From Octopus vulgaris (taxonomy: Eukaryota): DNA of 64,000 nt. The position numbers and the translations under genes are program-made. The notes under the pieces are model-generated. The model had not been told where the DNA came from. It was given only the letters and a program-made list of their open reading frames with translations, and searched no databases. Positions within the stretch are counted from its first letter, which is position 1; each line of letters begins with the position of its first letter. The stretch spans positions 26,474,001 through 26,538,000 of the forward strand of contig OX597826.1 in NCBI GenBank assembly GCA_951406725.2, read 5' to 3'. Shown in pieces: positions 28,230 to 62,252 of the stretch.

Positions 28230-28725
28230 CATCTACTTCCATTTCTGTAAGCTTATTCTATTTCACCTCTCACTCTAGACCTCTCCACTATTAGTTTACT
28301 GCTAATTTCTTTCTTTCTCCTCCTTCTTTTTCTATAAACTACCTTTGACGTTATATCTACTAACGATTAAAAAAATCTTGTTAGCGTTCCCTTCATCATA
28401 TACACAGTCATCACATTCTGTTAAAATGTCTTATTGATGTGTTTGGTTTCTTTCTTTCCTTGATGAGAAGATTGCATTGTTTTACACCATTTTGTTCCGT
28501 CTTCGAAACATATGTCGGAAGTAAAATAATTTGAATAACACCGGCGTTTAACTCCATTAATTTATCTATATATATATGTGTACATGTATATATATATATA
28601 TATATAAAATTGCATATGCATTAATTTTTATATACAAACTGATGACAGAATGAAGGATGAACTTTATATGATATATTTTATGTATTTCTGTACGCATTTG
28701 AGTACAAATATGTGCGTGTGTGTGT

Positions 28726-40495: not shown

Positions 40496-41174
40496 GTGAG
40501 TTATAGAGTAAACAAATTTTTACAGTGGGAACCGTAGTAAAAACAGGGAGAGAGAAATTGTATTATCAACAATAAAAGGGTAAAATAAATTAATTATTAA
40601 TTAATTTCACCAATTAGTGTTCAGTATGTAAAAGGACCATTCAAGGTATATTTAAAATATTACGTTATATAATTAGGGCTCAGTAAAATAATATACTTTA
40701 CCAGACACTGAAACTTTTAGAAATAGCAGCCAAAAAGTTTTATTAGCTATTTCTTCTACTATAAGAAAAGTCTCCCAGATAGTGTTTACTCAAAAATAAT
40801 TCACGCAGATATGGAGGGAAAAATAACAAATTATCACATGTACAAAGATCATTTGAGAACGTTAACGTTTCTAGATTAGTTGAATTTAAAACTCAACACA
40901 ATACAATTTCTCTCTCTCAGTTTTTACTACGGTTCTCACTGTAAAAATTTGTTAACTCTATAACTCACGTGGATGGAAGCGGGAGGAATGCAGAGCCTCA
41001 TTCGTACTTTTTGAATTTGCTGGTACTGGCAGTTGAAAATGGTTTGTCTGAGATTACTCATATCAGATGGGTATGTTCGATTTTTAGTGCTCTCAAATCC
41101 AAATATAAGAAATATTGAGCTGACGAAGGAAGTGTTGAGTTTTAAATTCAACTAATCTAGAAACGTTAACGTTC
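40496..41174. mobile_element. Hammerhead-bearing inverted/permuted element, copy 1
   Basis: Interleaved inverted pairs ~40496-40564/40900-40968 and ~40857-40899/41132-41174; homologous to the 59 kb element. Confidence 0.75.
41115..41174 (+). ncRNA. Type I hammerhead-like ribozyme truncated just after its cleavage site
   Basis: TTGAG-CTGACGA-A-GGA-agt-GTTGAGT-tttaa-ATTCAAC-taa-TCT-A-GAAA-CG-ttaa-CGT-T. The missing stem I 3' strand (CTCAA) is seen in the inverted copy near 40852-40857. Confidence 0.65.
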
Positions 41175-41402
41175 ACCGTTACCTCCTGCCAGAGCCGCGT
41201 GGAACTTAGGTATTTTGCTCATAAACACCCACATCACCTGGTTTGCAATTAGAACCCGCGAGACCGCTGCTCTAGCCAATAGGCCATGTGCCTCCACTTA
41301 CATATACACACACACAGACATACACATACATACACACAGACACACACACACATTTATGTTGTACGTCTGTATACATAAATATAGGTTATATACACCATGC
41401 GT

Positions 41403-41823
41403 AAGGCGGCGAGCTGGCAGAATCTTTAGCACGGCGGGTGAAATGCTTGACGGTATTTCGTCTGCCGCTACGTTCTGAGCTCAAATTCCGCCGAGGTTGA
41501 CTTTGCCTTCCATCATTTCGGGTTCGATAAATTAAGGACCAGTTACGCACTGGGGTCGATGTAATCCACTTAATCCATTTGTCTGTCCTTGTTTCTCCTC
41601 TCTGTGTTTAGCCCCTTGTGGGTAGTAAAGAAATAGGTATTTCGTCCGTCTTTACTTTTGGAGTTCAAATTCTGCTGAGGTAGACTTTGCCTTTCATCCT
41701 TTCTGGATCGATAAATTAAGTACCAGTTACTCAGTGGAGTCGATGTATTCGACTTAATCCCTTTGTCTGACCTTGTTTATCTCGTCTATGTTTAGATAAA
41801 CATATTGTGGGCAATAAAGAAAT
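41403..41823 (+). mobile_element. SINE family B partial dimer
   Basis: A full unit followed directly by a second unit starting at ggtatttcgtc. Confidence 0.8.
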
Positions 41824-42449
41824 ATAAATATACATCATGCATAAAAATGTATCATACAAACTATGAAATCATCGTTATTTACAGACCCATATTGTGTGCT
41901 TACAAATGTACCAAGACGTGATATAAATAAATGCACATTACGATGTGTGTTTCTTCCTGTACAGCGAAGGTTAATATCTCAGCACATTTATATTTTTAAC
42001 CAATTTTAAAGTTCCTCTTTTTAAAAATAAATCTTTCTTGAATATGTGTGGGGTAAAAACCTTAGCGCCTCCTACAGGGTACGTGAGGTCAAAAGAAGTT
42101 ATAATATCCAAGTGTTATGTAGAGAGCGATTAAATTCATAATTGGCTCATGTATACAACAATTTCGTTCACACGCACGCACACACACACACACACGTATA
42201 CACACACATACACAAACACACACAGACACACACATATACAAGCTCATACACAATGATATACTTCTGCTTAATATATAAGCATACTACACACACATATATA
42301 TATATACATATATACACATATGTATATTTGTATATATTTATGTACGTATATTAGTGATCGGTGTAATATATACGAATATATACAAATTATAAGCTGATGC
42401 ATAGATACGTGTATCTCTTTAGTATATGCAAATTACACACACACGCATA

Positions 42450-42529
<80 letters not shown>

Positions 42530-42533
42530 TATA

Positions 42534-43190
42534 ACAAAAGAAAAATTCTAATGCCATATATGCCGAAAAAAAGACAAAATTGTCAATAACCATTATAATT
42601 TATGCGCCTCGAAACAAACCGATAGAAATTTCTAAAAATTCCGTTATTACCGTATTGGTCCCAATTTCGGGGTTAATTCATAAGAAGTTTTCGAAAAAAG
42701 AAATTTTTCCTACATTGGTTGTAAATTTAATAGTGTTCACTTCCGGATTCTCTCTCTCTGTGAAAGTTTCTAGATCGAATCACACGTGTCTCGAGATGTG
42801 CCGAAGATTTTCTATCTTTTATATATTTGGGGTACTTAGGTCTGCTCAGGACTTAGTGCTTGCTTTTTCCATGGGTATGAGTAAGTATTCCATTTATGTC
42901 TTACGTATTTATCGCTGAAGAGGGGAAAATTCTTATGAATTAACCCCGAAATTAGGACCAATACGGTAATAATGGATTTTTTAGAAATTTCTATCGGTTT
43001 GTTTCGAGGCGCATAAATTATAATGGTTATTGACAATTTTGTATTTTTTTCGGCATATTTGGCATTAGAATTTTTCTTTTGCCCTTATTTTGTAAGTTAT
43101 TAATAAATTTAACCTTTAAATGTATTTTTTTATATGCTGGCCATTGATAAATTTTTTTTTTCGAAAAATAAAATTTATCCTACATTAGTT
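42534..43190. mobile_element. Hammerhead-bearing inverted/permuted element, copy 2, inside (AT)n
   Basis: Inverted arms ~42534-42690/42925-43082; direct 30 bp redundancy 42691-42720/43161-43190; (AT)n on both flanks. Confidence 0.8.
42909..42969 (+). ncRNA. Type I hammerhead ribozyme
   Basis: Stem I TTATCG/CGGTAA; core CTGAAGA; stem II GGGG-aaa-ATTC-ttat-GAAT-taa-CCCC; GAAA; stem III ATT(a/g)-ggac-CAAT (fully paired in the inverted copy); predicted cleavage after ATA at 42963. Confidence 0.8.
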
Positions 43191-44139
43191 ATATATATAT
43201 ATATATATATACATTTGTCTCTCCCTATATAGTAAATATTTAATTCAAAAGTTCTAAAAGAAACAGGAACATTTTATATCGAAATATACCAACATAGTAA
43301 AATTTAAACCAAAATTAAATGCATTTTGAAAAATTTAAGCAGTATTTATATAACAATTTCTGGATTGTGGATTCTAATCTCATTGTTGATAATATCACAA
43401 ATGTTTTTCACGGTTTTGGTAATATTTGTTTTACTTGGTATTGGTAACTGTGTTTAATATGGCCAACTGTTTCAAACTCATTCTGGTTTCGATCCCATTC
43501 TGTGACATCTTGAGTAAGTAACTTTTACTATAAGACTAGGTTTAACCAAAATCTTTTCAGTAAAAATTGGTTGACGGAAATTCGGTTGGGGTTTGCCGCC
43601 TGTAAGCGTAATACAATATAAACCTGATAGACTGTATCCGTGATTTGTAGGTCCCAGCGTTATTACACATTCTGCCGTGGAAGTTCTCCGGAACAATCAC
43701 TTTAAGGATATATGTATCTGTGGAATACTTTCAACGCTGATTCCATACGCAGACATTTTAATTCGTCGAACAAATAAATATTCTTCGTCGATAGTGAAAA
43801 TCCATTGCAAAAAGTAAGTAGTGGTGTCGCAATGTAAGAAGTCCTTATTTACAGCAGTCTCAGTAAGCTACTTCTATGTGACACGCAACCTGCAAAAATT
43901 ATATGCGTAAGAGAATACTGCTACAGGTAAAATATGTCCGAAAGTATGATGTAGTAGACACGGCAGGAACGCCTTTGTCCAATTACCTGCTCTGCTCCAT
44001 CAGGAGCTGCCAGGAATTGCGCATGGAAAAAACCATAAAGCAATTGTTATATATATATCAGGGAAGTGCAAAGGAGAGGAAGGGGTGGAAACAATTGTTT
44101 TAATTTCTTGCATGCGTATTGTTTGTTTTTGATTTTGTC

Positions 44140-44945
44140 GAATACAGAGTATAGTAGGGTCAGTTTGGGCTCCATCTGTGAGAAAAACGGCACCACGACG
44201 CAATTCATTTTGCCAGGAATTTGGAAGCGACATACTGTACTGCTTGACATTCGCGTCGAAAGCTCCAATACGAACGATTAAAAGTGTTTGGTTGTCATCC
44301 AGAGGACAGTGGAGTCTGAGGACATGTACCGAGAGTGATAAAAATCAAACATCCAGTCAACATCATGGTGTTTGGAGTGATCACTACTGATGGCGACGTT
44401 ATGCTTGCATTCATCTTCCCGCATGAACTCAGACTCAAAACGGAGAACTACATCAAGTTCCTGGAGGACGTAATGCTGCCAGGGTTCAAGAGGGTGGCTG
44501 CTGGAAGAACCCATGACTGGCACAGGATTCTGCACCATGTTACATAAGCAAGAGAACCCAGTCATGGCTGTCAGATAATTTCTGTGACCACATCAACCCC
44601 AACATCTGGCGATCTAACTTCCCAGACTGAAACCCCCTTGATTATTATGTGTGAGGCGCAGTTAAGCGAGAGACCAACACAATCTTTGTAACACCAATGA
44701 TGAATGAAGGCAATAATTTTGGCAGCATTCACCAACTTAAACAAGAATTTCCAAAATAGTTGCAGGAGATTCCGAAGACCTCTGGAGGCCTTGGTAAAAA
44801 GCCAATGGTGATGTTATTGAATAAATTTACTGTTTAGTATTTCAAGATATTTTTATGCAAGTTTGGTAAATATTTCTGTTAAAATGAGATGTCAGTGTTA
44901 TTTTCATTCGTAATTTAGACGACAAAATATTCACCGCACTCTGTA
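44140..44945 (+). mobile_element. Tc1/mariner-superfamily transposon relic (maT/DD37D-like)
   Basis: KHPVNIMVFGVITTDG...YIKFLEDVMLP...QDSAPCY.SKRTQSWL..NF...W..NFPD*NPLDYYV. Right end ...caccgcactctg-TA. Left TIR not evident. Confidence 0.8.
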
Positions 44946-45163
44946 TGTATTGTGTGTGTGTGTGTGTGTTTGTGTGTATGTGTATGTATATATATATATA
45001 TATAATATATTCATAGATATAAACAAATATATAAATATATATATAAATATATATTTATATAACTATATATATAAGTATATATTCATAAATATATATAAAC
45101 ATTCATAAATATAAATATATAACTATATATTCGTGCATTTGCATCTGTGCTTTTGTTGTGTGT

Positions 45164-45215
<52 letters not shown>

Positions 45216-46197
45216 TATAATTAACTATAATATTTAAGTGTACATCTAATTGTCCTGGAGCCACCTGTTCTTCTGAGAGATATGGCTATCTTACCATCTA
45301 TTGTGCTCTTTTATGAATTTTGCAGGACTTGTCACAGTTTGAAATAGAATCTTCATTTTGGGAGCTGTGAATGCATTAAATTTATTTATTTCTCATGAGT
45401 GCTTGTCGACATGATACTGGGGAACTTTGTAAACGAATAAAAACGTGGGCGTTTAGCTCTAGAGATAGTGAAATTAATGGAAAGTTTATGAATATATTGA
45501 TATTACTTTAATCAAGGTCTTATTTCGTTGAAGAGTGGTAGACAGACGCGTTTCACACACGCTAAGATGGGAAAAGAGAACTATACTAGTTTCTTATATT
45601 GTTGTTTAGCAACAAACAGAAAGTGTCATAATTTTAATTGGAAAAAAATATAAACCCTTCGTGTTCAAACGAACGAATCTGGTTGATTAAAATGAAACGT
45701 GTAAACGAGAAGATGCCTATTATATATATATATGGAAAGAAAGAAAAATGAAAAAAAAAAGCTAAAGAAAGAAAGGAAGTAAAGAAGTGAGGGATAGATA
45801 ATGAAATAAGAAGCGAAAGAAAATGGGTGAAACGACATTTGAAATGCATACAAAGACCGGATGAAAGCAAATCAGGCAAATTCCATTATCGTCTTGGCAT
45901 TATTGTATATATTGCTTATGCATTATAAATAGTGTTATGATAGTGTAAAATGATATTCTCAACTAAATAATTGCTACACGATTTCTACTTAAACGTCCAG
46001 CCTGAGGTGTTTTTAGTATTCTCATGTATTACTGGAACTAGTAGGAGAGGCAGAGATTGGTCAAAACATCATACCAAGTAAAGGTAGTTTATTCATCTAT
46101 GTAATTGAAATAGTGTAGCCATGCTGCTATCGCTTTTAACCCGCAATGTTTCTTTTTAGATAAATAAGTTAGGAGGTGATATACTTAAAGACGTATG

Positions 46198-46293
<96 letters not shown>

Positions 46294-46486
46294 CATAGGC
46301 TAACTGAATTGAAATATCTCTCTCCTTTGTTACATAATAACATAATAAATTCTTTATATAACTATATACCCGTCTCACTTACTGCAGCTTTTCTTTACTC
46401 TCTAACAATATTTCCGTCAGTCGACTGTGGACCTGCTGTGGCGCTTTTTCGAAATGTTTAGTAGGTCGTGTACCTAAAGATGTACG

Positions 46487-46536
<50 letters not shown>

Positions 46537-46649
46537 AAATGAATTGAAATATCCCTCCCCCTTTGTTACATAATAAGTTCTTTATATAAATATCAAATAT
46601 ACCACTGTCTCAATTATTGGGCTTAGCTTTTATTCTCTAACAATATTTC

Positions 46650-46990
46650 AACGATTAGACTGCGACCATACTGTGGCACTTCCTTGAAGTGTTTAGTGAA
46701 ACAAATCGACGCCATTATTTTCTTTAAGCCCGGTGCATATTCAGTTGGTTTGTTTTTGGTGAGCCCCCAATTTGCAGGGGGGTAAACAATCCGTAACCTC
46801 ATATCAAACGTGATGGCATATATAGGTCCATATACGACAGACTTCTTCGCAGTTTCTGTCTACTGGATTCACTCAAGACGGTACGAAGTATTGGCCATCC
46901 TGGGGATACATCAGAAGATACATTTCCAAGATACTATAAAGCGGGACTGAACCTGAAACCAACTGTTTGCGAGGCGAACTAATCACGCAG
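46650..46990 (-). mobile_element. SINE family A, diverged
   Basis: gactgcgaccatactg...cagtttctgtctact...gggactgaacctgaaacc. Confidence 0.6.
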
Positions 46991-48278
46991 TCAGGTTAAT
47001 TCTATTTTTAATTATACAAAATTACATTCGTCCAAATTTCTTCACATGTTTTTTTTTATATGTACATAAAATATCTTTGTTAGCATATCAAAGCAAACTG
47101 GAGATGCAGTAGGCTTTTCTATTGAGTTTCAATATATCGGAACATGCCTGTAACTGTTAAATTGCCAGCTAATATATGTGAAATAAAATACAATGAGAGC
47201 CGCTAAATTAGTTGACAAATATATTCATCACTCTTTGTCCCGTACTATGCGAGCTGTGGATGAGGAAGATCATGTCTCTTTTAAACTGATTAAAGACACT
47301 TACTAGTAGTTGTTTTTGTTGCCATAATACTTCAGTGAATTTAATTATAGCAGTTGCTAAATTAAACGGACTCGGTACAATGACTGGAGAAATTATACTT
47401 TCTTACATTGTCGGTGAAACAAAAGCCTTAGCAGTAGATAAGTAGATGCAATCATTTATTCATAACAATCGATCAAAACAAATACATCTGTTCCTATTTT
47501 CTGAATCTAACAATAAATCTTTTACAAGATTGCACAGCTTTTGATAATGCAACAGCAACTGTACATAAAGCAACATCACGGGTTTACACGAGACCCTTTC
47601 TAACTACTGAAGTTAGTAATGCCCGTGAAATATATTAACTTTTATAGTTTAAGAAAGCTCTTTCTTATAAAACCCCTCCGACTATTTCAACATTTCACGT
47701 TAGATTATATATGATCTCTTCGTTTTCCTAATTCAAATGTGTACTTGCCTTTTGCATATAATTCATCCTGGAATTGCTAATACTTTTACAAATGCTAGAG
47801 GCTTATTCGAATTTCGCGTATGTCACTTCTTAAATGACAAGGAAGACAAGGCTTCTACAAGCGATGTAGCTTGGTCTCCGAGGACGCTAGGAATATCAGA
47901 ATCTATCAGTTGCGAGAATTCGTCCGGTTAAAACTGATGTAGAAAATAAACCATATGCTATTTAAGGAGATTGTGAATAGATAAAAACAAGTTTACTTCC
48001 AGTAATACGCTTACACCTATATGATATAACATTAATATTACCAAATACAGTTAATCCTAGGGACCATCGACCAATGTGGAGAGCAACAAGAATTCCGGGA
48101 AGATAAATTTTAAAATTCAAAATTCAAGGTTAATATTTTGTAATTGTAATCTTTCGATTGGATGCATCATATTAATGTTATAATAAATTACCAAAGTGAA
48201 TTTGTAAATTGAAAACCATTATATTGTAAATATGACGAATAAAATAAAGAAATTCATTTAATATTTTTATATACTCGA

Positions 48279-48310
<32 letters not shown>

Positions 48311-49164
48311 CATATATATACATATAATTTATATGTAATATAGGATAAAGACACCTTCAGTCATGAATGACCATAGGATTGTACCGAGAAAGTTCCCTAC
48401 CGTAGTATATATTGTTGCAGGCGTTTGCTCAGAGAACTCACTGCTAGGAAGGACTCTGTCAAGTATCACGACCGGTCTTGGAAGAGTTCTTTCAATCCAA
48501 TGCCTTGAATTTATACTTCATTTGGCGATCGCGATCTTTGCTTTGAACTCAGATTTCAAAGATTATGGATAAATACTGCGTGGCTTTCTATTGAACACTG
48601 AACGATATTATCAATTCGCTGCCTTGTATTAATATACTGATGTGACACCTTTTATACGTAATTTACAGGAATTTTGGTTTTTAAATTTACTTTTCCTTTC
48701 CCCTTTCATTATGTAACAACCTGTACGTACACTGCTTTGCTGTGGGTGGATAGCAATAATTCCATAGCAGTGGCGCATTCACCTTGTAGCCGTTCGTGGT
48801 AACACAACATCATAATCAAAAATAAAAGTTTTACATTCCGTATGGCAGTTATCGTGACTCAAATATAAACAACCCTATCGTTGACTTGAAAGAAGATAAA
48901 GTTCAAATACGGTAGTTGTATACGTATCATAATTTTATATTTGCATAATTCATTCCACCATATTGCCAGTCTATTATATTTACGTTCACAGTGACAGAAA
49001 ATGTTCCGTACAAATCCATTTTACAATATCTCTCTATAAAAGAATGATGAAACAACTTAAATTTGCCTTACTCAACTATAAAACATACTTGTAAAATAGA
49101 GGTGAGTTTTATGCGACACCTCGTAATATACACCGGAAAATGCGGCATATATATAAGTAAATGC

Positions 49165-49260
<96 letters not shown>

Positions 49261-50049
49261 AGTATGCATGTGTATGTATCTTTATGTGGATATGTGTAAG
49301 TTAAAGATTTGAGTATTAGCTTGCTATCGTGAGTGTATGTGTAAATGCATTGTTCAAACTCTACACTGGTTTCTAGCGTTCTAAATAAGGCAGAGAAACA
49401 TTAAACTTTTTTCCATCGTCCATCCTATAATTATATCATAACATATTTTGTCTGTTGTATATAATGTTGTGGAAGAACTGTTTCAATACGCCATCGACTC
49501 CTAAACAGTGGATAGGCAATGAATGTCGTAGAATCTAAATGGATCGATATGTAGCTATAAATATTCAATTATTCTCAAATGAAAATCAATAATAGCTATT
49601 AAAATCGACAGATCAATATACGTTGTTATTGAAGGATTGCTAGTAAAAAAAATCAATGCATGGTTTGAGCCAAAATGGGAAAAACACAAGCTACTGAGTC
49701 ATTAAAATTTAAAGATCGATTCATAACTATTGAAGCGTGAATAAATCGAATCGATACACGTCTAGTGGGAAGTTTGTCAATTCCAATAAGAATAACAATA
49801 ACAAGCGACAAAATTAATCAATCAATGCAGAATCAATGATGCCTTAAGCTTGAGACATGACATTAAATCTTGTATATTAATAAAGCCTATACTACACTAA
49901 TTATACACATACACACGTAAATGCAGTATTTACGCACAAGCACACAAAATGGAAATTTGTTTGGTAGTTTGGTAGTACTCAATACATGACATGATATATA
50001 TATATATATATATATGCATCATTTTCATTTGAGAATAATTGAATGTGTA

Positions 50050-50101
<52 letters not shown>

Positions 50102-50105
50102 TATG

Positions 50106-50156
<51 letters not shown>

Positions 50157-50403
50157 GTATATATGTGTATAAATATATATATATAAATTGATAGATATGC
50201 ATGTATGCATGTATATATATATATATATAGCTTATTTATGTATCTATCTAATTTTTAGTGGGTAGAAAGTGACTCAAGGGCCGAGTGTTTCGTGCATGGT
50301 ACTTACAGATTTCTAGCGGTTATATACGAATTTCTCAGTCATTGAAGACGTTTACGTTTTGTAAATATCTGCCGTTTATAAATGATAACAGCGATAATAA
50401 TAA

Positions 50404-50670
50404 TGTGGCTGCTGATAGGAAAGAACAAGAAAAAACAATAGAAAAATACCAAAATTTGGCTAGGGGAATGCGAAAATCGTAAAGGATGTCTGAAAAATAA
50501 TCCAGTAGTTATAGCCGTCCTAGTTACCATTAGCAACAGACCTACTAGTGTTTCTTATCGAGATAGGGCGTAAGTGCGAGAGTTGCGTCAACAGAGAAAT
50601 ATATTCTATCATGAAGAGTAAAGATTGATCGGAAGGTGTTCGATATTTAAGGAATTTAGTTGCAATTCGC
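50404..50670 (+). mobile_element. Short RLE C-terminal fragment after a short (AAT)n
   Basis: EKTIEKYQNLARGMRK, IIPVVI-like and RKVFDI* segments resemble the C-terminus of the 52-54 kb element. Confidence 0.55.
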
Positions 50671-50724
50671 TATGAAGGACGTTGATTCCGAATGTAACAT
50701 TTGTGAATACCATTAGAAAAAAAT

Positions 50725-51485
50725 AACGGCATGATGCAATACATCTTATTTCTTTACTGCCCACAAGGGGCTAAACACAGAGAGGATAAACAAGGACAGA
50801 CAAACGGATTAAGTCGATTATATCGATCCAGTGCGTAACTGGTACTTATTTAATCTACCCCGAAAGGATGAAAGGCAAAGTCGACCTCAGCGGAATTTGA
50901 ACTCAGAACGTAGCGGCGGACGAAATACCGCTAAGCATTTCGCCCGGCATGCTAACGATTCTGCCAGCTCGCCGTCTTCTTGATGCAGTACCAAGCAATG
51001 GTTCTCATGGCTTATGATCTTAACTGATTGGATATTTCGTTTGGTGTAGAAGATAGGCTACGGCAAATATTCTGCTCGATACGGCAGATTTGCTTGTTAG
51101 TTGCTTGGCCTTAACCAGTCGATCTTACCTCTTTGTGACTGACTATATGTGCATCTCTGATCACGAGTAGGAGTAGTAGGAGAGCATCATAGCCATGTGT
51201 TGTGAGAGATTCTTTGGAGTTTGGATAATGTATCCCTGGAAATATGGGTCTTTCATTCATCGTTAAACAACCCTTATTCAGGGAAATTTTGATTGGGATG
51301 GGCTACTTGATCTGAAGAAAATTCTTACCGGACTCCAATTTCAAGGTCATACGCTGTTTATTTTGATATGGTATCATTATGTTGCGCACATATGGTTGTG
51401 ATGCATGTGCCTGGGCTACTCTTATGAGACAGGTGGTCATTCCAGCATCATTTTGATAGCATCTGTTGCTCATGTTCTCTCGCTC
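50725..51485. mobile_element. Older copy of the ~540 bp (AAT)n-embedded element, with a SINE inserted near its left end
   Basis: tgatgcagtacc...gatcttaactgattgga...ctctcgctc-(AAT)n matches 51575-52118. Confidence 0.7.
50745..50976 (-). mobile_element. SINE family B
   Basis: Reverse complement of 55683-55917; probable TSD tgatgca(a/g)tac at 50732-50742/50981-50991. Confidence 0.8.
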
Positions 51486-51498
51486 AATAATAATGATG

Positions 51499-51574
<76 letters not shown>

Positions 51575-51576
<2 letters not shown>

Positions 51577-52118
51577 GCCCTGATGCAGTACCATGCAGTG
51601 GCTCTCATGGCTTCTGATCTTAACTGATTGGAAGTGCTATCATGTACATTGTTTTGTATAAAAGATGGGCTACAGCAAATATTCTGCTCAATACCACAGA
51701 TTTGCTAGTCAGTTGTTTAACCTTAACCAGTTGACCATGTCCCTTGGTGGATGACGATATGTGCATCTCTGATCACGAGCAGAAGTAGTGGGGGAGCATC
51801 ATAGCCATGTGTTGAAAGCAATTCTTAGAGGTTTGGGTAATTCACCTTAGGAAACACGGGTGATTCGTTCAACGTCCTTAAACAATTCAGGGACCTTTTG
51901 AGCGGGATGGGCTACTCGACCAGAAGAAAATTCTAACTGGGCCCCACCTGCAAGGTCATGTGCTGTTTATCTTGATATGAGATCACCATGTCGCGCACAT
52001 ATGGTTGTGATGCATGTGTCTGGTGTACCCTTATCATACAGGTAGTCATGATGGGTATACTGGGCTTTGTATATTTTACCCCAGTGTCACTTTGATGGCA
52101 TGCACTGCTCTCTCACTC
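51575..52118. mobile_element. ~540 bp non-coding interspersed element embedded in (AAT)n
   Basis: Sharp boundaries with (AAT)n on both sides; collinear with a second copy at ~50725-51485. Confidence 0.75.
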
Positions 52119-52165
<47 letters not shown>

Positions 52166-52181
52166 TAATAATAATAATAAT

Positions 52182-54208
52182 ATATCACAAAGGCTGAACA
52201 AGCACCTGGACGAAAACAAACTGTTCCCAGAAGAGCAGAAAGGATGCCGCAAAGGCTCATATGGCTGTAAAGATCAACTAATGATTAATAAAGCCATAAC
52301 TAAAGACAGCCACAGAAAGAAGAAAGGCCTCAGTATGGCCTGGATTGACTACAAAAAGGCGTTTGAAAGCATCCCCCACACATGGATCCTCGAAACACTA
52401 GCCATTAACAAAGTAACACCAACAATCATAAAATTCATAGAGCACTCTATGAATAAATGGCAAACAGTCCTACACCTCCAAACAAAAGACGGACTCATGA
52501 AAACCAAAGACATCCCCATTAGAAGAGGAATATTCCAGGGAGACACGCTCTCTCCACTCCTTTTCTGCTTGGCACTGTCACCTCTATCTGATATGCTAAA
52601 TAGAACTGGATGCGGATATAAATGTTACGGGAAAACGATCAGCCACCTTTTATATATGGATGACCTAAAACTATACGCTGCAAATGACAAACAGCTGGAA
52701 ACACTATTAAAGACAGTTCATGGATTTACCAAAGAAATAGATATGAAATTTGGATTAGAAAAATGCGCCAAAGTAACCCTGAAAAGAGGAAAACTAGTTA
52801 AGAGTAACAACATCACACTAGATAAAACAAATGAAATAAAAGAATTAGACCAAAGCCAAACTTACAAATACTTAGGAATCCATGAACTAGATAAGACACA
52901 ACACACACAAATGAAAGAGAAAATAAAAAAAGAATATTATAGACGAGTTAGATCAATACTAAACACAGAGCTCAATGCTAAAAACAAGATAATAGGTATC
53001 AACACTTTAGCTGTCCCAGTTATAAGTTACAGCTACAATATCCTTAACTGGACACGAAATGAACTGACCAAAATAGATAGGAAAACAAGAAAAATAATGA
53101 CAGGATCTAGGATGCATCACCCAAAATCTGACATAGAAAGACTATATATACAACGTATAGAAGGTGGTAGAGGCCTTATACAGCTGGAAAACTACTATAA
53201 AATAACCACCATAGGACTGCAAAAATATCTACTTCAGAAGGAAGGAAAACTGATCCAGATAGCGGCAAAACACGAGCAAAACAAAAAACTGTTCTCAGTA
53301 TTTAAGGAAGCTGACAAATACAAACAAGAAATCATACCACCGAATAAACATGAAGAAGAAGAAGATGAAGAAACAACAAAAGCTATAAAACAAATGAAAT
53401 CCAAACTAAAAATAGAACAGCAACGAACCATGATAAAACGATGGCAAGAAAAACCCCTTCATGGTAAATACTGGACTAAACTAAACGCAAAAGAAATAGA
53501 CAAAGAAAAATCCCAGCAATGGTTGAGAAGCTCAGGACTCAAAGCAGAAACAGAGGGATTTTTAATTGCAGCACAAGACCAAAGCCTCCCCACCAGAAAT
53601 TACCAAAAACATGTAATAAAAAGAAATATTACAAGTAACTGCAGAATATGTGGAGATGGACAAGAAACAATAAATCATATTATCTCTAGCTGCCCAGTCT
53701 TGGCTAAGAAGGAATATATTCAGAGACATGACAGAGTTGGAACCTACATACATTGGAAGCTATGCCAACATTATGGAATAACAACAGAAAAAAGATGGTA
53801 TAGGCACACACCAGAAAAGGTCACAGAAAACGAGAAAGCAACCATACTCTGGGATATGCCGATACACACAGATAGAGAAATTAAGGCCAACAGACCAGAT
53901 ATAGTTGTCAGAGATCATGAAAAAAAAAATGCTTTCTAATTGATGTATCAATACCGGCTGATGACAACGTGTCTCTAACAGAAATGGAGAAACTCTCAAA
54001 ATACAAAGACCTGGAAATAGAGGTAACTAGAATGTGGAATCTGAAAACAGAAACAATTCCTATCATAGTAGGTGCATTAGGCATGATAAAAAAATATTCA
54101 GACAAATACATAACAAAAACACCAGGACTTACAAACACATATAACATACAGAAAATTGCACTACTAGGCACTGCACACATCCTACGCAGAACACTTTCCA
54201 TACAATAA
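52182..54208 (+). pseudogene. RT/RLE polyprotein, N-terminally truncated, single frameshift in the A10 run at 53920-53929
   Basis: About 580 uninterrupted codons, then a frame change that rejoins ORF 53969-54208. The ORF-track start at 52014 is upstream non-coding sequence plus AAT repeat. Confidence 0.88.
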
Positions 54209-54302
54209 CCATCAGAGCATCACAACAAATCACAGCACATACCCAAGGCACACAGAGCTGTGCTCGGTAGTGAAGTGAAAGAACGCTATAAAAATAAAAC
54301 TA

Positions 54303-54305
<3 letters not shown>
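52182..54305 (+). mobile_element. 5'-truncated non-LTR retrotransposon with RT, CCHC zinc knuckle and restriction-like endonuclease (R4/Dong-like), inserted in (AAT)n
   Basis: ORF 52014-53939 has RT motifs (EEQKGCRKG, WIDYKKAFESIPH, GIFQGDTLSPLLF, HLLYMDDLKL, KYLG), CRICGDGQETINHIISSC, RHD and RPDIV. After a frameshift it continues LIDVSIP...EKLSKYKDL...LRRTLSIQ* (54208). A ~97 nt 3' UTR follows. (AAT)n lies on both sides. Confidence 0.93.
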
Positions 54306-54394
<89 letters not shown>

Positions 54395-54396
<2 letters not shown>

Positions 54397-55505
54397 GAAA
54401 GACAAGGTCATTATTGCATATTTGAAGCGCCTCAAACCTCTCTTGAAATCAAAATTCAACTCAAAGAACCGCGTGACTGGCACCAGCGTTTGAACTGTTG
54501 CTGTAGCCCGCTACAGTGCACTACAATGACAATGCATGGGGCCCTCCACCCTAATGCGAACGTACGCAGACTTTACATGAAGAGGTATAAGGGTCGATGT
54601 GTGTTGATTAGCATACGGAAGTGCATCAAGAGTGAAAAAAGAAACATGGCGGAATCTTTGGTAAACAGTAAACAAGACCTGCTACAGTCTGCTGCTAATG
54701 CAGAAGGATTTACAAAAAAAAATGGAATTGAGAGTGCTTATGAATTCCGATCACTAATAGCCAGCGAGTGAGAAGAAACCCTACTCCGTATGGAATTACA
54801 TGGTCAGTTCCACAGTGAAACTAACTTAAAAGATCAGGAAGCATCATGTAGGTGGCTCAGTAAGGATGACCTAAAAGAGAAAACTGTAAGCTTAATCCTC
54901 GCTGCTCAGGACCAGACATTGAACAGTAACTCAGTGAAAAGAGATATATGACACACAAGTGCAATGAACCTTTGCAGAATGTGCGGAAAGAGGGTCGAAA
55001 GCGTGACACGTTGTTAGGGCCTGTGAAAGTCTTGCATATAAAAAGTATAAACACAGACACCGCAAGGTAGGCCAAAACCTTCACTGGCTACTATTCCGGA
55101 AGTATGGATACGAGGTAAAGCGTGTTTGGTACCAACATACACCGGAAAAGGTAATGAACGAAGAGGAGGAGGCAAAATCGAAAGCCTGATATGGTAACCA
55201 TTAAGAGCTACAAACAAGAGGGCCTAATAACTGACGTGGCAGTGCCAGGGGATCAACATATTATCATGAAAGAAAAAGAAAAGATTAATAAATATGGAAA
55301 CCTGTAAACTGTGATCACCAAGATGTGACAGCTACGAGAGTCAAACATAAAGTTTGTCCCTATTGTCCATTGGAGCATTAGTTTCAATACCACCCAACCT
55401 GAAAACATCTGGAAACTTTAGAAATGCCCTACAATCGAGGTGTATTGCAAAAATCGGCATTACTTGGAACTGCACGCATATTGCGTAAAGTATTGTCTGT
55501 CTGAC
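54395..55505 (+). mobile_element. Older, decayed RLE-type non-LTR retrotransposon fragment (thumb, CCHC, endonuclease)
   Basis: Translations MKDKVIIAYLKRLKPLLKSKFNSKN, MHGALHPNANVRRLYMKR, CRMCGKRVES and LQKSALLGTARILRKVLSV* are collinear with the upstream element. Many stops and frameshifts. Starts directly after (AAT)n. Confidence 0.85.
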
Positions 55506-55594
55506 ACAATATCTCAATCAACGACATCGCGATATTGGATATTGAGCGGCGTCTTAAATGATAATATCTATTGATATCAACATAGGTTGTAATA

Positions 55595-56140
55595 GAAAAT
55601 GAAAAGTTACAAGATCTTTTGGGATTTCTCTATAATGACGGAACACACAACTGATGCAGGTATACCGGATATGGTATACCTGCTTGGCGAGCTTGGCAGA
55701 AACGTTAGCACGCCGGGCGAAATGCTTAGCGGTATTTCGTCTGCCGCTACGTTCTGAGTTCAAATTCCACCGAGGTCGACTTTGCCTTTCATCCTTTCGG
55801 GGTAGATTAAATAAGTACCAGTTACGCACTGGGGTCGATATAATCGACTGAATCCGTTTGTCTGTCCTTGTTTGTCCCCTCTGTGTGTAGCCCCTTGTGG
55901 GCAGTAAAGAAATAGGTATACCAGATATGATCATAAAAGACAAAATAAATAAACGGTGTAAGATCAAAGATTTTTCAATCGCTTCAAATAATAGAGCTGA
56001 TACTATGAAGTTGGAAAACCTGTTAAATATCAGGATCCAGCCAAAGAAATGAGAAGATTGTGGAAGACAATGACAATTACTTTTCCTGTAGTAATTGGTG
56101 CAATTGGAGCAACACCCAAAATTCGATGTAAAAGACTGAA
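55595..56140 (+). mobile_element. RLE endonuclease-domain fragment interrupted by a SINE
   Basis: KIFWDFSIMTEH...PDM before the SINE; PDMIIKDK...EMRRLWKTMTITFPVVIGAIGATPK after it. Confidence 0.7.
55683..55917 (+). mobile_element. SINE family B, young copy
   Basis: ggcgagc(t)tggcagaaacgttagcacg...gagttcaaattcc (B-box)...gcctttcatcctttcggggt...gtaaagaaatag; probable TSD aggtatacc(g/a)gatatg at 55658-55673/55914-55929. Confidence 0.8.
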
Positions 56141-56936
56141 AGCTTCAGCTCTGCCTAAGAGCACGAATTATGTTAGGTCTGTCATAAAACCGGAGTAATT
56201 GTTTTCCATAATGCACATTGTAACTAAGATCAGAACATTTTCTTTTGGACGTGACGCCGCTTCGTCTCAGAATTAACCCCGCAGCATTAAACCCGCATTT
56301 AACTTCTGAATTTGAAATGAAGAATTTTTTCTCAGGAGCACTGTGCACTGCGGAGTCTTGGAGATCGAAACCGCAATCGCCAGATCATAGATACAATACA
56401 CTAACTGTCAGATCACGCGCATTTATTTGTAACATGTAACAATATAAATTTCTCTCTATTTACTATGTAAAAAAAACAAACTAGTCCATTAAACGATGTT
56501 CTATAAGCGGTGGGGAGCCACAACTACCCTCGTGATAGTTATTTATTGATGCTTGCAATCTCAGTTTCTATAAAATATTAGAAATTGTAGAGATTTTCAT
56601 GTAATTCTAATAGTTTATTTAATTACAATTCCTGTAAAATGCAGCAAATACATTTTCGAGTGATTACTTGATATTTCAAAACATGGACGACGCTCTTAAA
56701 TGTGAAATGCTCCTGTGTTTTTCCCTTCGTTCACATTTCATTGCATACCAAGTATTTTAATATTTTAGTATATATTTTAGTATCGATGCGTCAGGGAGAT
56801 TGCATATTTATTTATCTATTATTTACATATATATTTATATGTTTATTTATTGATTTATATATTCATTTAATATTTTACATGAAAATCAAACATTAGTGTT
56901 CACTTATTCACGCTGTCTCTCTTAATCTGCCTTTTC

Positions 56937-57008
<72 letters not shown>

Positions 57009-57012
57009 GTCA

Positions 57013-57044
<32 letters not shown>

Positions 57045-57166
57045 GTCTATCTATCTGTCTCTCCACCTACATAACTATCTGTTATGTCCTTACTTCACTC
57101 TTCCTCTGTGCCTTTTTCTTTTCTACTCTACTTTTTACGTTGTGCATATTTCTACATATTTCTACG

Positions 57167-57218
<52 letters not shown>

Positions 57219-57477
57219 TATGTAGGTATGTATATATATATACATATGAATGCATATATAAAGAGAAAAAGAGGGGTATACATTATACAATCATACACGC
57301 TCGCTCATATATTGTTATAAAGAAAATAACATATACGGGGAGTACAATTGTGTGTTTGTATATGTATATGTGTATGTATGTATGAATGTATGTATGAATG
57401 TATGTATGTATCTATGTATGTATATATATGTATATATATATATGTATACATACACACCATACACACATACATACATA

Positions 57478-57525
<48 letters not shown>

Positions 57526-58251
57526 TTTACATACCTATATATACACATATACGATTGTATACATACATATACGTGCACATGTTTGTGTCTCTACATAAAT
57601 ATACATACATGCATATATATGCACCCACACATATTCTTATAAGTAGTACGCCCAAGTATGTATATTTATACTTAAACAAGACAATATGAATTATGTGTAT
57701 GGTATCCATTTAAATTTTACTGCATTGGGGGAAATGTTGTTGGTGGCTAACGATCAATAGGGTCGTAGATGTGATTTGGCAGTCACGCTGGCTAAACGCA
57801 ATCCACAGCAACTGTCTAAATCTGAATTGGTAGCGAAATATCAAGATAATGTTATATCTAGCAAGTGAAGCGTACATACAATATAGAAGAGCATATTATA
57901 TCGCCCGTTATCTCACTGCCTGCTTACCCGCACACCACATGTCAATATATGCGTATAATATACGCATATAATATACTTTCGAAGGCTCATAGACAAGACG
58001 TGTAGAGAAATGTTTTGTTCGAAACACACGCATGCATATTAAGCACACTGTGAGACAACCATACCCACACACAAGACAAAACACACACACACATATTTGT
58101 ACGCCTATGAACACGTCAGAGAGGTACTGGCGACAGACACATCGACGCATACATGCATATATATACACGGGTGTAATGTAAGATAAAGTGGAATACACAT
58201 GCATACACAAATGTGTTTGCACGTAAATACATTTACGTATATATGTATATA

Positions 58252-58308
<57 letters not shown>

Positions 58309-58852
58309 GTATATGCTGGGGTGTTCTGAAATGTGAATATATGTATGCATATATATATATGAATGTTTTTCCTTTCCTTCAAACAATGTATCTATCTACG
58401 TGTATGTGTGTATTTGTGTGCGTTGAATAAATGAGAAAATTGGTGTGACATGTATTGTGTACATATATTCTCACAAATGCTGCACGTCACAAGACATTCG
58501 CATGCATTACCACGTACACGCATACGTAGATGAATAGATGAATAGATGCATACATACATATATACATTCATACATAAATGCATATATACTTACACACACA
58601 TACACACACACATATATATATAGAAATATATACATACATGAACACACACACATGTGTGATTTTAGGATATGTATATAAATTCATATCTATAAATGCATAT
58701 GTAGGTGAGTGTGTATGTCTGCGTGCGTATATATACATACACATAGAGGTGAGCGTGCATACACACACATACACAAACACACACAGAGAAACATTAATAT
58801 ATATAAACATATATACATATACATGCGTACATATACATATATATTATAAAAG

Positions 58853-58926
<74 letters not shown>

Positions 58927-59003
58927 GGGGAAACGATACGTAGCTGTATGGTAAGATACTTGCCTCCCAACCACATGGTCTGGGTTCATTCCCTTTGCGA
59001 CTG

Positions 59004-59054
<51 letters not shown>

Positions 59055-59240
59055 TAACAATGAGGGTCTTTGCAACAGGTTGCTAGACCACATACAGAAA
59101 GCATTAGAAATAGCAGCCAGACGACTGTTATTTCTTTTACTACAATAATAAGTGTCCCACAGACAAACGGTATTTGTAACTCACTATGGCAAAAAAAAAA
59201 ACAACGAAGAAAAACAACGAAATCAAACAGTGTCCGGTCA

Positions 59241-59300
59241 ATTATGGACGCATACGTTTCTGGATTAGAATCAGGGATTCATTTCCTTCATCAACATAAT
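59241..59300 (-). ncRNA. Type I hammerhead-like ribozyme (inverted copy)
   Basis: Reverse complement of the motif at 59647-59704, with stem III ACG-tatg-CGT and a GTC site. Confidence 0.7.
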
Positions 59301-59646
59301 ATTCCGATAAATAAATCTAGAAATGCTAGGAAATCTTACCCTCCATATTCCGAACATGCGAAATCGGGGCATACAGAAGCTAATCAGCATATCCACATTT
59401 ATATAGACAAGTGAATTCGTATCTCCCTCCAGAATTTCTCCCACGTGAGTCACAAATAATACTGCCGAAAATGAATTCGTAGTTCCGTCATATGGGGAGT
59501 AAAATAATCAATACAGATAAAGGGTGAAATATAATTCATTTAATGAAATCAACAAATTTCACCAAGTAGTTTTTCGGTATGGAAAAGGACCATATTCGGT
59601 ATGGAGGGTAAGATTTCCTAGCATTTCTAGATTTATTTATCGGAAT

Positions 59647-59704
59647 ATTATGTTGATGAAGGAAATGAATCCCTGATTCTAATCCAGAAACGTGCGTCCA
59701 TAAT
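59647..59704 (+). ncRNA. Type I hammerhead-like ribozyme (variant core)
   Basis: Stem I ATTATG/CATAAT; core TTGATGA plus A; stem II GGA-aat-GAATC-cct-GATTC-taa-TCC; A-GAAA; stem III ACG-tg-CGT; GTC site at 59698. Confidence 0.7.
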
Positions 59705-60238
59705 TGACCGGACACTGTTTGATTTCGTTATTTTTCTTCGTTTTTTTGCCATAGTGAGTTACAAATACTGTTGTCTGTGGGACATATTTTTGTAGTAAAA
59801 GAAATAACAGTCGTCTGGCTGCTATTTCTAATACTTTCGGTATGTGGTCTAGCAACCTGTTGCAAAGACCCTCATTGTTATAATCATATATAATTTTACC
59901 GAATATGGTCCTTTTCCATACCGAAAAACTACTTGGTGAAATTTGTTGATTTTATTAAATTAATTATATTTCACCCTTTATCTGTATACATGTGATACCT
60001 ACAATCACTACAGTAACATATATAGCTTAAACATAGAAAGAAGTCACTATTTTCCTATCATCGTAATCGTTTGTATGGTCTTATCTCTTCTTGTACCCTA
60101 TTTCTATCATCTATACTAAGCATCGCATTCAACATTTCAGATAATTTTGAATCTCAGAACATAGTCCTTCCGTAACGCATCCTCTCTCTGTTTTCGCTAG
60201 AAGCATTAAGTAACAAAATTTAAACTGATCACCAAGGG

Positions 60239-60312
60239 CACCATCTTTACCATTCTGAACTGAGCTTGCTAAAGCCACCATCATTACCACTCTGAAATGA
60301 GTTTGCTAAAGC
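60239..60312 (+). repeat. 37 bp tandem duplication
   Basis: caccatc(t/a)ttacca(t/c)tctgaa(c/a)tgag(c/t)ttgctaaagc occurs twice. Confidence 0.85.
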
Positions 60313-60843
60313 CACGGGCGCTGTCACTGATTTTCTTGTCATATTCAACGTAATTGGATCCAATGCAAATTCCTTGTAATCAGAGCCAAGCGTGTTATCT
60401 GGTTAGATACTTTATGTTTCTATAGATAGCTAAAATTAAGCATCCGCTTCTGTGGAATTGACAATAATTGATGGAGAAGAATTCCATAGTATCCCGTACA
60501 GAAAATAAAGTAACTAATTTTAATAAAATAACGTATATATAGTAGTTTTGTTTCTAAAATATCTCTGGAGATATTTTTGAAGATATACGTGTCTGACAAA
60601 CATAATGGTAATAGATTTATGTACGAGTATATATATACATATAATCCTCACACGACATAAATACAAATAAGTAAATATATATATATATATATACACACAT
60701 ATAAATATATGTACGTATTTATACATATGAATATATTTATATGAATATATATATATATATAGATACATAGAAATATATAGATATAAATATATATATATAG
60801 ATAGATACAAACATATACATATATATATATACATATATATATG

Positions 60844-60874
<31 letters not shown>

Positions 60875-60987
60875 GTATTTATATGCATATATGTCTACAC
60901 ACGCATACACATATATAACCAACCATACACACATATGTATATGTCTATCTAGCTAACCGTTTCTGTCTCAGTCTCTATGACCCTCCC

Positions 60988-61060
<73 letters not shown>

Positions 61061-61074
61061 TTATATACAAACTT

Positions 61075-61758
61075 AGAGTCAGTGTGTTTGGCCTGGGAAT
61101 CCACATGAGCAACGACGCAACGTTCCATGTGCACAGTGTTCAAATGGCAGCACTATGCAGGTAGGTGGCAGGTTGGATCCTTAGATCCTTCAGGACCAGG
61201 AACAGGAACACAGTGCTTCTGCTTTGGCAAAGCTTTGTCCTTAGTCGCCCGGATTACTGTTCGCGGTGTGGTCCCCATATGGTACAAAACTAATTGCGGC
61301 ACAAGAAGCGATCCAACGCTTAAAGAAGATAGACTCTGGAAAACACATGGGCTACTGTGAGAGATTGAAGGAACTGGGACTCTACTCCGTAGAGAGGAGA
61401 CGTGAGAGAATACATAAAGGATTTGGCTCCAAATTTCGGAATTGAAATCTACAATAATTCCCGAACTGGACGGCACTGCACTGTACCAAAGATCCCATCT
61501 CCATCGAGGATATGTACTGAATATAGTAATTCAGAACATCAGTGATCTGCAGGGTGTAGACATGAAAGTCTTCAAAAAACTTTTAGACAGTTTTTTTCAT
61601 CTGCAGTTCCGGATGAATCTACATCGCGACAGGAGACACAAAGAAAGCGGCAACGTCCAACTCGCTACTTCACCAGAAGCAATACTAGATAAAATCCCCG
61701 GATGCAGTAATGGTGGCGCACCAGCATGGCCTCATCCTCTGGCTGACACCCATTAAAT
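61075..61758 (+). mobile_element. CR1-type LINE 3' fragment
   Basis: [15 protein letters not shown]...GWILRSFRTRN..VLLLWQSFVLSRPDYCS and ERLKELGLYSVERRRE are typical of CR1-clade RT C-termini; stops and frameshifts are present. Confidence 0.82.
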
Positions 61759-61846
61759 ATAGAAGATAAAAGATTTAAGTTACACATACATACATAAATA
61801 TGTGTACATATGTATGTATATGTATCCATATGTTCACGTATAATTG

Positions 61847-61884
<38 letters not shown>

Positions 61885-61927
61885 TAGATAAGAAAGTTGG
61901 TTTGTGAAAGCACGTGGTTGAATATAT

Positions 61928-62246
61928 AGAAAATAGTAAAAAGTGAAAAAACTACAGAAGGCTTAAAGGTTAAAAAATATATATATTTGCGTCAATATGT
62001 CTGAAGAATATTAAAAAAATTTGTTTTCTTACAATGACATAGTTTAGAAGAAAGACCGGTTTCGCGTTTAGCTTTTCAAATTTCTTACGACGTAAGAAAT
62101 TTGAAAAGCTAAACGCGAAACCGGTCTTTCTTCTAAACTATGTCATTGTAAGGAAAAAAATTTTTTTAATATTCTTCAGACATATTGACGCAAATATATA
62201 TATTTTTTAACCTTTAAGCCTTCTGTAGTTTTTTCACTTTATACTA

Positions 62247-62252
<6 letters not shown>
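61928..62252. repeat. Near-perfect 325 bp palindrome (162 bp arms, 1 nt loop at 62090)
   Basis: Arms are reverse complements with only a few mismatches; right flank is (CT)n(AT)n. Confidence 0.92.
62091..62133 (+). ncRNA. 3' half of a hammerhead ribozyme (stem II, GAAA, stem III, GTC), mirrored on the minus strand
   Basis: CGT-aag...taa-ACG-C-GAAAC-CG-GTC; the CTGANGA part is absent at the hairpin apex. Confidence 0.5.

Follow-up and report, generated by a model that had tools for sequence, protein, structure and literature searches.

Hammerhead-bearing fold-back insertions in the Octopus vulgaris genome as probable ends of Penelope-like elements

Four fold-back insertions and their families

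The stretch analysed here, hereafter the window, comprises 64,000 nucleotides (nt) of Octopus vulgaris DNA (contig OX597826.1 of assembly GCA_951406725.2, positions 26,474,001 to 26,538,000 of the forward strand) and is AT-rich and microsatellite-dense, a general repeat scan being dominated by microsatellites. A preliminary description of it had pointed out four non-coding insertions, each made of two oppositely oriented arms joined 5′-to-5′ relative to the strand of a hammerhead ribozyme. Self-BLAST placed all four fold-backs at the noted positions and in that orientation, and they are named here element A (40.5-41.2 kb of the window), B (42.5-43.2 kb), C (59.04-59.99 kb) and D (61.89-62.25 kb). 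Identity between the arms was 94-100% in two blocks in A, 96% over 156 nt in B, 93% over 316 nt in C, and 92% in the self-inverted D. We consider it highly probable that the four insertions are 5′-truncated, head-to-head ends of Penelope-like elements (PLEs), D belonging to an autonomous element of Neptune type and A, B and C being non-coding and likely copied in trans, by a mechanism that we infer below.

Relatives were searched for in a genome of 2.8 Gb (227 contigs), where a first look gave 1,145 candidates for A, 2,861 for B, 2,159 for C and 1,859 for D. For each family 40 candidates were scored and 30 loci returned, so that family figures rest on the best 40 of 1,145-2,861, and tail-anchored searches added 60 loci for families B and C. 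With 14 duplicates dropped, the final set contained 166 loci (27 A, 57 B, 54 C and 28 D), which are the best matches to the queries and not a random sample. Where the preliminary description had seen a single diverse family, four separate high-copy families emerged, among which A and C are the one related pair, sharing sequence at 70% over ~200 nt. Statements taken from the literature below are limited to the available parts of the sources cited.

Two fixed ends and the pairing of arms

In 161 of the 166 loci, the main arm stopped at one of two fixed sites and was followed by microsatellite. The distance between the two sites, which constitutes the tail of the longer form, was 88 nt in A, 83 nt in B, 96 nt in C and 42 nt in D. 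Tails were found elsewhere as well, with ~100 and ~110 nt in B2 and A2 (two diverged families described below), ~37 nt in a second Neptune family and 156 nt in a Hydra-type family. Tails of 83-110 nt (156 nt in the Hydra-type family) are longer than the published 30-40 nt.

Fold-backs were present at 76 loci of families A to D, and both outer ends lay at a fixed site in 55 of them. All 55 classifiable fold-backs combined one long (tailed) with one short (tail-less) arm (7 in A, 20 in B, 21 in C and 7 in D). B2 and A2, looked at afterwards, showed the same combination in 19 of 20 classifiable fold-backs, giving 74 of 75 in total. A short main arm was paired with a long partner in 26 of 26 cases and a long main arm with a short partner in 48 of 49; since the rule holds for main arms of both types, it is not explained by query bias. 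The arms extended independently of each other in the 5′ direction, with the tail-less arm reaching further in 28 of the 55 fold-backs, the tailed arm in 22, and both equally far in 5. The arms overlapped by 1-10 nt at the junction in 35 of the 55, and microsatellite was found on both flanks in 45 and on one flank in 10. The family structure, the two fixed ends, the pairing rule and the independent arm lengths are direct observations on these loci.

The pairing rule, together with the finding that either arm can be the longer one, points to both ends of the target DNA being primed, at two internal start sites of the reverse transcriptase (RT). The main rival explanation, which we regard as improbable, is that a palindrome is copied from a single folded-back cDNA, or from a self-priming antisense RNA, and that an endonuclease (EN) then trims the tail of one arm. 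Self-priming was indeed proposed in PMC3846280 and the tail was ascribed to resolution by EN in PMC8557442, near-perfect hairpin junctions do occur (e.g. in element D and at a second locus with the same junction), and in 39 of the 48 tests the partner arm resembled the main arm more closely than the family median. However, a simple snap-back from a tailed cDNA needs the tail-less arm to be the shorter one, which the 28 fold-backs with a longer tail-less arm contradict, and a rescue of that model demands that the arm attached to the target be cut again. Insertions with a single arm likewise stop at either site, and the RT uses both start sites in vitro (PMC11167929).

Hammerhead motifs

The stem I pairs quoted in the preliminary description (TTATCG/CGGTAA, ATTATG/CATAAT and TTGAG/CTCAA) were all found, although the two strands of TTGAG/CTCAA sit on separate arms of element A. 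Its statement that each insertion holds a type I hammerhead or the 3′ half of one needs correction for D, which has a complete variant hammerhead on both arms; A has no complete one. A relaxed type I descriptor (core C3-A9, G12-A15.1 and U16.1-H17, with three stems) matched the window seven times, whereas 100 block-wise dinucleotide shuffles averaged 0.05 matches and never gave more than 1. Of the seven matches, B holds one, C and D hold two each, and another lies at 28.46 kb; the last, at 21.8 kb (21814-21893, + strand), is weak, with a 2-bp stem II and a long loop, and may be a chance match. The descriptor was also satisfied by 15 of 27 A, 22 of 30 B, 18 of 29 C and 25 of 28 D copies.

The B ribozyme fits the published PLE hammerhead consensus, whereas A, C and D have core variants: A.A replaces the usual G10.1-C11.1 in A and C, and an extra U stands beside position 3 in D. 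All families have a short, palindromic stem III, a form described as a dimer-type design in PMC4209133, which also reported U3-A8 cores and opposite-strand hammerhead pairs 100-700 bp apart. Covariation of the stems, for which the preliminary description had called, was observed between families when 19 C copies were aligned with 11 A copies, 97.1% of cells being paired as against 30-44% with slid partners. Two pairs of stem I are fully compensated between A and C, and the core 3-8 pair was U-G in 14, C-G in 9 and U-A in 5 copies. The suggested check with the Rfam model was negative, as the gathering score was reached on none of four natural copies and nowhere in scans of the window or of element B, the Rfam list for the window being dominated by microsatellite and miRNA artefacts. 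On these scores, the short-stem variants are outside the curated Rfam hammerhead models. We treat the hammerheads of A to D as putative self-cleaving ribozymes. None of 27 B copies had its 5′ end at the ribozyme cut, and 18 of them ran past it.

Elements A, B and C as non-coding units

Families A, B and C each consist of a closed, non-coding unit, of 565, 467 and 552 nt respectively (repeat periods of ~564, ~467 and ~550 nt), and upstream of each unit lies the unit's own 3′ end, in head-to-tail arrangement. The unit junction was crossed by at least 15 nt in 16 of 27 A, 29 of 57 B and 6 of 54 C loci (51 of 138). Unit position 1 was considered as a template-jump junction and ruled out, as long ends run a few nt beyond it and the template is continuous. 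Two whole tandem ribozymes were present in copies L166, L053 and L296, and arrays were short, with at most ~2.6 units within 3-kb loci. A variant of family A (L046/L053, G000:C14:42437087-42440950) has a period of 661 nt, compared to ~564 nt in the family, and two tandem ribozymes.

The diverged relatives B2 (~510 nt; L296; 1,874 candidates) and A2 (~602 nt; L315; 2,059 candidates) are also non-coding hammerhead units and are built alike. Both had been taken up as possible autonomous partners and turned out to be further non-coding units. L296 holds ~2.6 tandem units, and the long stem II of A2 escaped the relaxed descriptor.

Of the copies linked to an RT or GIY-YIG frame that the preliminary description had proposed to look for, none was seen among the 138 loci inspected in these three families. 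Homology to a PLE open reading frame (ORF) directly upstream was absent from all 27 A loci and occurred at a single locus each among the 57 of B and the 54 of C, and in both exceptions it belonged to a separate fragment, split off by microsatellite or other DNA. RT and EN fragments beside L014, L086 and L158 were likewise neighbours and not linked parts, and no ORF followed the tail in the 60 tail-anchored loci. Because of the two fixed 3′ ends, the (TA)n targets, the head-to-head arms and the lack of a linked ORF, the best reading is that A, B and C are non-autonomous PLEs, or animal retrozymes, mobilised in trans. The preliminary description had assumed such mobilisation by a Penelope-like RT for all four insertions, and it is not supported for D, which is the pseudo-long terminal repeat (pLTR) of an autonomous element.

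A, B and C could also be nothing but truncated, amplified pLTRs whose parent autonomous PLEs are extinct or low in copy number. D behaves exactly in this way, the inspected loci are 138 out of thousands of copies, and ATG and splice-donor motifs like those of pLTRs are kept upstream of the ribozyme in 22 of 27 A and 29 of 30 B copies. We nevertheless hold this to be very unlikely, because the unit's own 3′ end lies 5′ of the unit at a constant period in the 51 loci mentioned above, leaving no room for an ORF; the two-ribozyme tandems and the tail-anchored loci argue in the same direction. The splice-donor pattern for C, as written, matched 7 of 29 copies and was not counted as support. Introns are known from Penelope pLTRs (PMC2377424), and the ribozyme of A, B and C is probably located in an intron inherited from a pLTR. 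Run contigs that were only guessed to be RNA contained no splice joint, and a seamless circle is indistinguishable in them from a DNA tandem.

Classical rolling-circle retrozymes, in which ribozyme-cut monomers circularise and the circles are the obligatory template, share with A, B and C the type I hammerhead, the low GC content and the tandem units (PMC7229834), and the many copies that read through the cut site and the unit junction could derive from a circle. A read-through multimer transcribed from a partial tandem would give the same data, however, the arrays are short, and the units are longer than the circles of 170-400 nt described in PMC7229834. An obligatory circle therefore appears rather unlikely to us.

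The window copies show these features in different states of preservation. The inverted arm of element A (40496-40899, - strand) runs from unit position 231 to 563 and through the unit junction to position 65, and holds the 3′ half of the hammerhead only. The forward arm (40900-41174, + strand) covers unit positions ~1-270 and is cut at the ribozyme, which lacks the 3′ strand of stem I (41115-41174, + strand; core CTGACGA at 41120, GAAA at 41160, palindromic stem III). The ribozyme is thus complete on neither arm, unlike in the 15 of 27 family A copies with a complete hammerhead. Cleavage was ruled out as the cause of this break at the cleavage site, as the flank is the middle of a neighbouring downstream repeat, to which the arm is fused by 4 nt of microhomology.

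In element B, the inverted arm (42535-42690, - strand) contains unit positions 200-354 with the 3′ half of the hammerhead, and its outer end, flanked by (TA)n, stops ~30 nt before the fixed short site. The forward arm (42688-43196, + strand) begins with ~36 nt of a previous unit, which is followed by a full 467-nt unit up to the long (tailed) site in (TA)n. It contains a type I hammerhead (42909-42969, + strand; core CTGAAGA at 42915) with a predicted cut after 42963 and a stem III that differs from that of the family by one mismatch, and ends with the tail of ~83 nt that separates the fixed 3′ ends (43112-43196, + strand). In element C, the inverted arm (59043-59601, - strand) runs from unit position 461 to 552, over the junction and from 1 to 456, stopping at the short site in (TA)n, and includes a hammerhead (59241-59300, - strand) with core TTGATGA and a U3-G8 pair. 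The forward one (59595-59987, + strand) contains unit positions 155-552 up to the long site and overlaps the inverted arm by 7 nt at the fold-back junction. Its hammerhead (59647-59704, + strand; predicted cut after 59698) would lie within a predicted GT..AG intron (donor 59608, acceptor ~59795), and its tail (59893-59987, + strand) is ~96 nt long. A CACGTG palindrome was observed ~55-65 nt past the long end in all three elements (window positions 40966, 42783 and 59442), despite the unrelated sequence of B, and is a possible promoter element.

Element D and autonomous Penelope-like elements

The inverted arm of element D (61886-62093, - strand) has a 42-nt tail (61886-61927) and a complete variant hammerhead (62048-62086). 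The forward arm (62087-62252, + strand) is tail-less, ends in (CT)n(TA)n and contains an ATG at 62140 and a predicted 81-nt intron (62148-62228). Its variant hammerhead (62094-62132, + strand; predicted cut after 62126) has a 6-bp stem I (AAGAAA/TTTCTT), an extra U, the core TTGAAAA with a U3-A8 pair, a 2-bp stem II and a palindromic stem III. The same fold-back junction, just upstream of stem I, was found in the window (62080-62100) and in L106, on a different contig. As it lies at a natural quasi-palindrome, it is either a hotspot or a copied fold-back.

Among the 28 D loci, 15 had PLE ORF homology on the same strand as the ribozyme, ending at most 700 nt upstream. Nine extended loci showed a 5′-truncated element of up to ~2.7 kb, 95-98% identical and in several cases with long inverted arms, and a full-length copy was absent among these nine. 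A natural frame of 695 amino acids (aa) gave weak Pfam matches to RVT_1 (E 4.5e-4) and GIY-YIG (E 0.04), both below the cut-off. Translations of D showed a CX4CxxC linker, EN residues of CCHH type, and RT and C-terminal GIY-YIG in a single ORF, and the Neptune layout reported in PMC8557442 consists of a CX2-5CxxC linker and a CCHH-type EN. On this sequence evidence, D is the 3′ end (pLTR) of an autonomous, endonuclease-containing (EN+) PLE of Neptune type, the clade being called from motifs. The preliminary description had allowed that novelty would drop if the units were terminal repeats of autonomous PLEs, and this is the situation of D, which is protein-coding elsewhere in the genome. In the window itself, tblastn with PLE protein pieces gave zero matches.

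Further PLEs were observed beside these families. A recently active Neptune family (L196, L201 and L215) has many 781-aa frames, a U3-A8 hammerhead, a tail of ~37 nt and tandem CCAAT/TGACGTC-like repeats in the 3′ untranslated region. A young Hydra-type family (L270 and L271; G000:C14:27820000-27826200 and C5:7065700-7071900) has intact 899-aa frames, a hammerhead and the 156-nt tail, and L270 has a tail-less inverted arm at its 5′ side; the Hydra-type EN gave 18,392 first-look candidates. The fifth hammerhead of the window (core at 28460, U3-G8) belongs to a segment ending in (TA)n (28306-28590, + strand), which is a truncated 3′ end of a Hydra-type PLE, 73% identical over 330 nt to L289/L284, where the sequence comes after an EN frame. 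A 642-aa open frame in the window (52011-53939, + strand), flanked by (AAT)n, encodes the RT of a non-LTR retrotransposon and not of a Penelope element, and further fragments of long interspersed nuclear elements (LINEs) lie at 30.2-30.9 and 61.1-61.7 kb.

Proposed mechanism of insertion

We propose that an RNA continuous across the unit junction, either a read-through multimer or a circle and mostly not cut by the ribozyme, would be bound by PLE protein, which would cut both strands of a (TA)n target. Each target 3′-OH would then start cDNA synthesis within the RNA, at one or other of the fixed sites that lie a tail length apart. The two cDNAs would extend 5′-ward over independent distances and be joined at a few nt of microhomology, so that one arm of the fold-back, and only one, has a tail. 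The hammerheads, predicted to be weak and to act as dimers or with the help of protein, would process transcripts and not set the insertion ends. In vitro, purified Poseidon PAc protein cleaves AT-rich DNA on both strands and extends each of them, reverse transcription begins at two internal sites, both downstream of the hammerhead, which define a tail of 30-40 nt, its main substrate is uncut RNA, and the protein is predicted to be a dimer (PMC11167929). It is with moderate confidence that we read the near-absolute pairing rule as the mark of a dimeric RT-EN whose cut ends are each primed at a different RT start site, with at least five non-coding hammerhead families exploiting it and tails of clade-specific length (~40-156 nt).

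Several observations weigh against these interpretations. One fold-back, L307 in the B2/A2 set, is long on both sides, and 21 of 76 fold-backs in A to D and 4 of 24 in B2 and A2 were set aside as having an end at neither site. In no more than 18 of the 48 tests was the partner arm the closest copy, a result that one template as well as two might give. As regards the ribozymes, the covariation between families represents a few inherited events and not 21 independent ones, predicted monomer folds of C and D miss the active fold, and 3 of 25 C copies had their 5′ end within 5 nt of the cut site. The A.A at 10.1-11.1 in A and C and the extra U in D may lower activity, insertions at the position next to 3 having reduced it in PMC3088659. 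Lastly, the partner search, which covered the GIY-YIG family, the Hydra-type EN and 40 extra loci and scored the best 40-150 of thousands of candidates, recovered several Neptune and Hydra-type families, which share with A, B and C only neighbouring insertions. No autonomous partner sharing A, B or C sequence was thus seen among ~100 EN loci (of 6,136 and 18,392 candidates), and the B2 and A2 families gave none either.

Relation to known systems and implications

The dual priming proposed here resembles twin priming of LINE-1, where both target ends prime cDNA and the resulting inversion is joined at microhomology. LINE-1 arms copy non-overlapping parts of the RNA, whereas here the arms share one copied 3′ region and differ in which of the fixed starts they use.

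All four families share with EN+ PLEs the optional tail, the inverted 5′-truncated copy and the microsatellite target. D has in common with Neptune EN+ PLEs (PMC8557442; PMC4209133) an ORF with RT, CX4CxxC linker and C-terminal GIY-YIG, a pLTR hammerhead with palindromic stem III, 5′ truncation with an inverted 5′ copy, and a tail of ~40 nt on one end at a microsatellite target; its ribozyme differs in combining a U3-A8 core, an extra U before the core and a stem II of 2 bp only. A, B and C resemble metazoan retrozymes and non-autonomous PLEs, including the MRC1 type of PMC8557442, in being tandem non-coding hammerhead units dispersed mostly as monomers or partial tandems alongside autonomous PLEs (PMC7229834; PMC8557442; bioRxiv 10.64898/2026.07.22.740005). 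They differ from published retrozymes in that the PLE integration signature is read from non-coding copies, tails are 83-110 nt long, the ribozyme lies in a predicted intron, arrays are short, and the families are known here from DNA only. Like Poseidon PAc (PMC11167929), A to D have two presumed RT start sites downstream of the hammerhead, an AT-rich target and ends that are not set by the cut; in its available text, that study does not link each site with one arm of an inverted insertion, as is done here.

Parts of this system are already published. Inverted 5′-truncated PLE copies with a 30-40-bp tail at one end were reported (PMC8557442; PMC3846280), the latter describing the tail as 'optionally' present on one inverted pLTR under a self-priming model, and PMC8557442 called the mechanism of tandem and inverted insertion unresolved. 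Retrozymes were described in PMC7229834 and reviewed in PMC6765202, their origin from PLEs was traced in vertebrates, insects and coral, with no mollusc in the available text (bioRxiv 10.64898/2026.07.22.740005), and an expansion of Penelope elements in octopus was noted in PMC8967140. Opposite-strand pairs of PLE hammerheads, the reading of retrozymes as non-autonomous PLEs and the one-sided tail are therefore not new; the interest of these families attaches to the end-pairing rule counted here, to the length of the tails and to the variant cores, rather than to the existence of the system. A literature search that covered few subscription journals and neither Repbase nor Dfam returned nothing on cephalopod hammerhead families, a counted one-tail rule or twin priming by PLEs, and the core variants or the priming model may already be described elsewhere.

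If true, dual priming explains the head-to-head structure and the one-sided tail in one step, and the one-tail rule, combined with independent arm lengths, makes the insertion mechanism testable with the in vitro system that is already available. In addition, the families supply natural variants of the hammerhead core and minimal cis-templates of 470-600 nt for recognition by PLE RT, and they represent invertebrate genomic evidence for animal retrozymes moved by PLE machinery.

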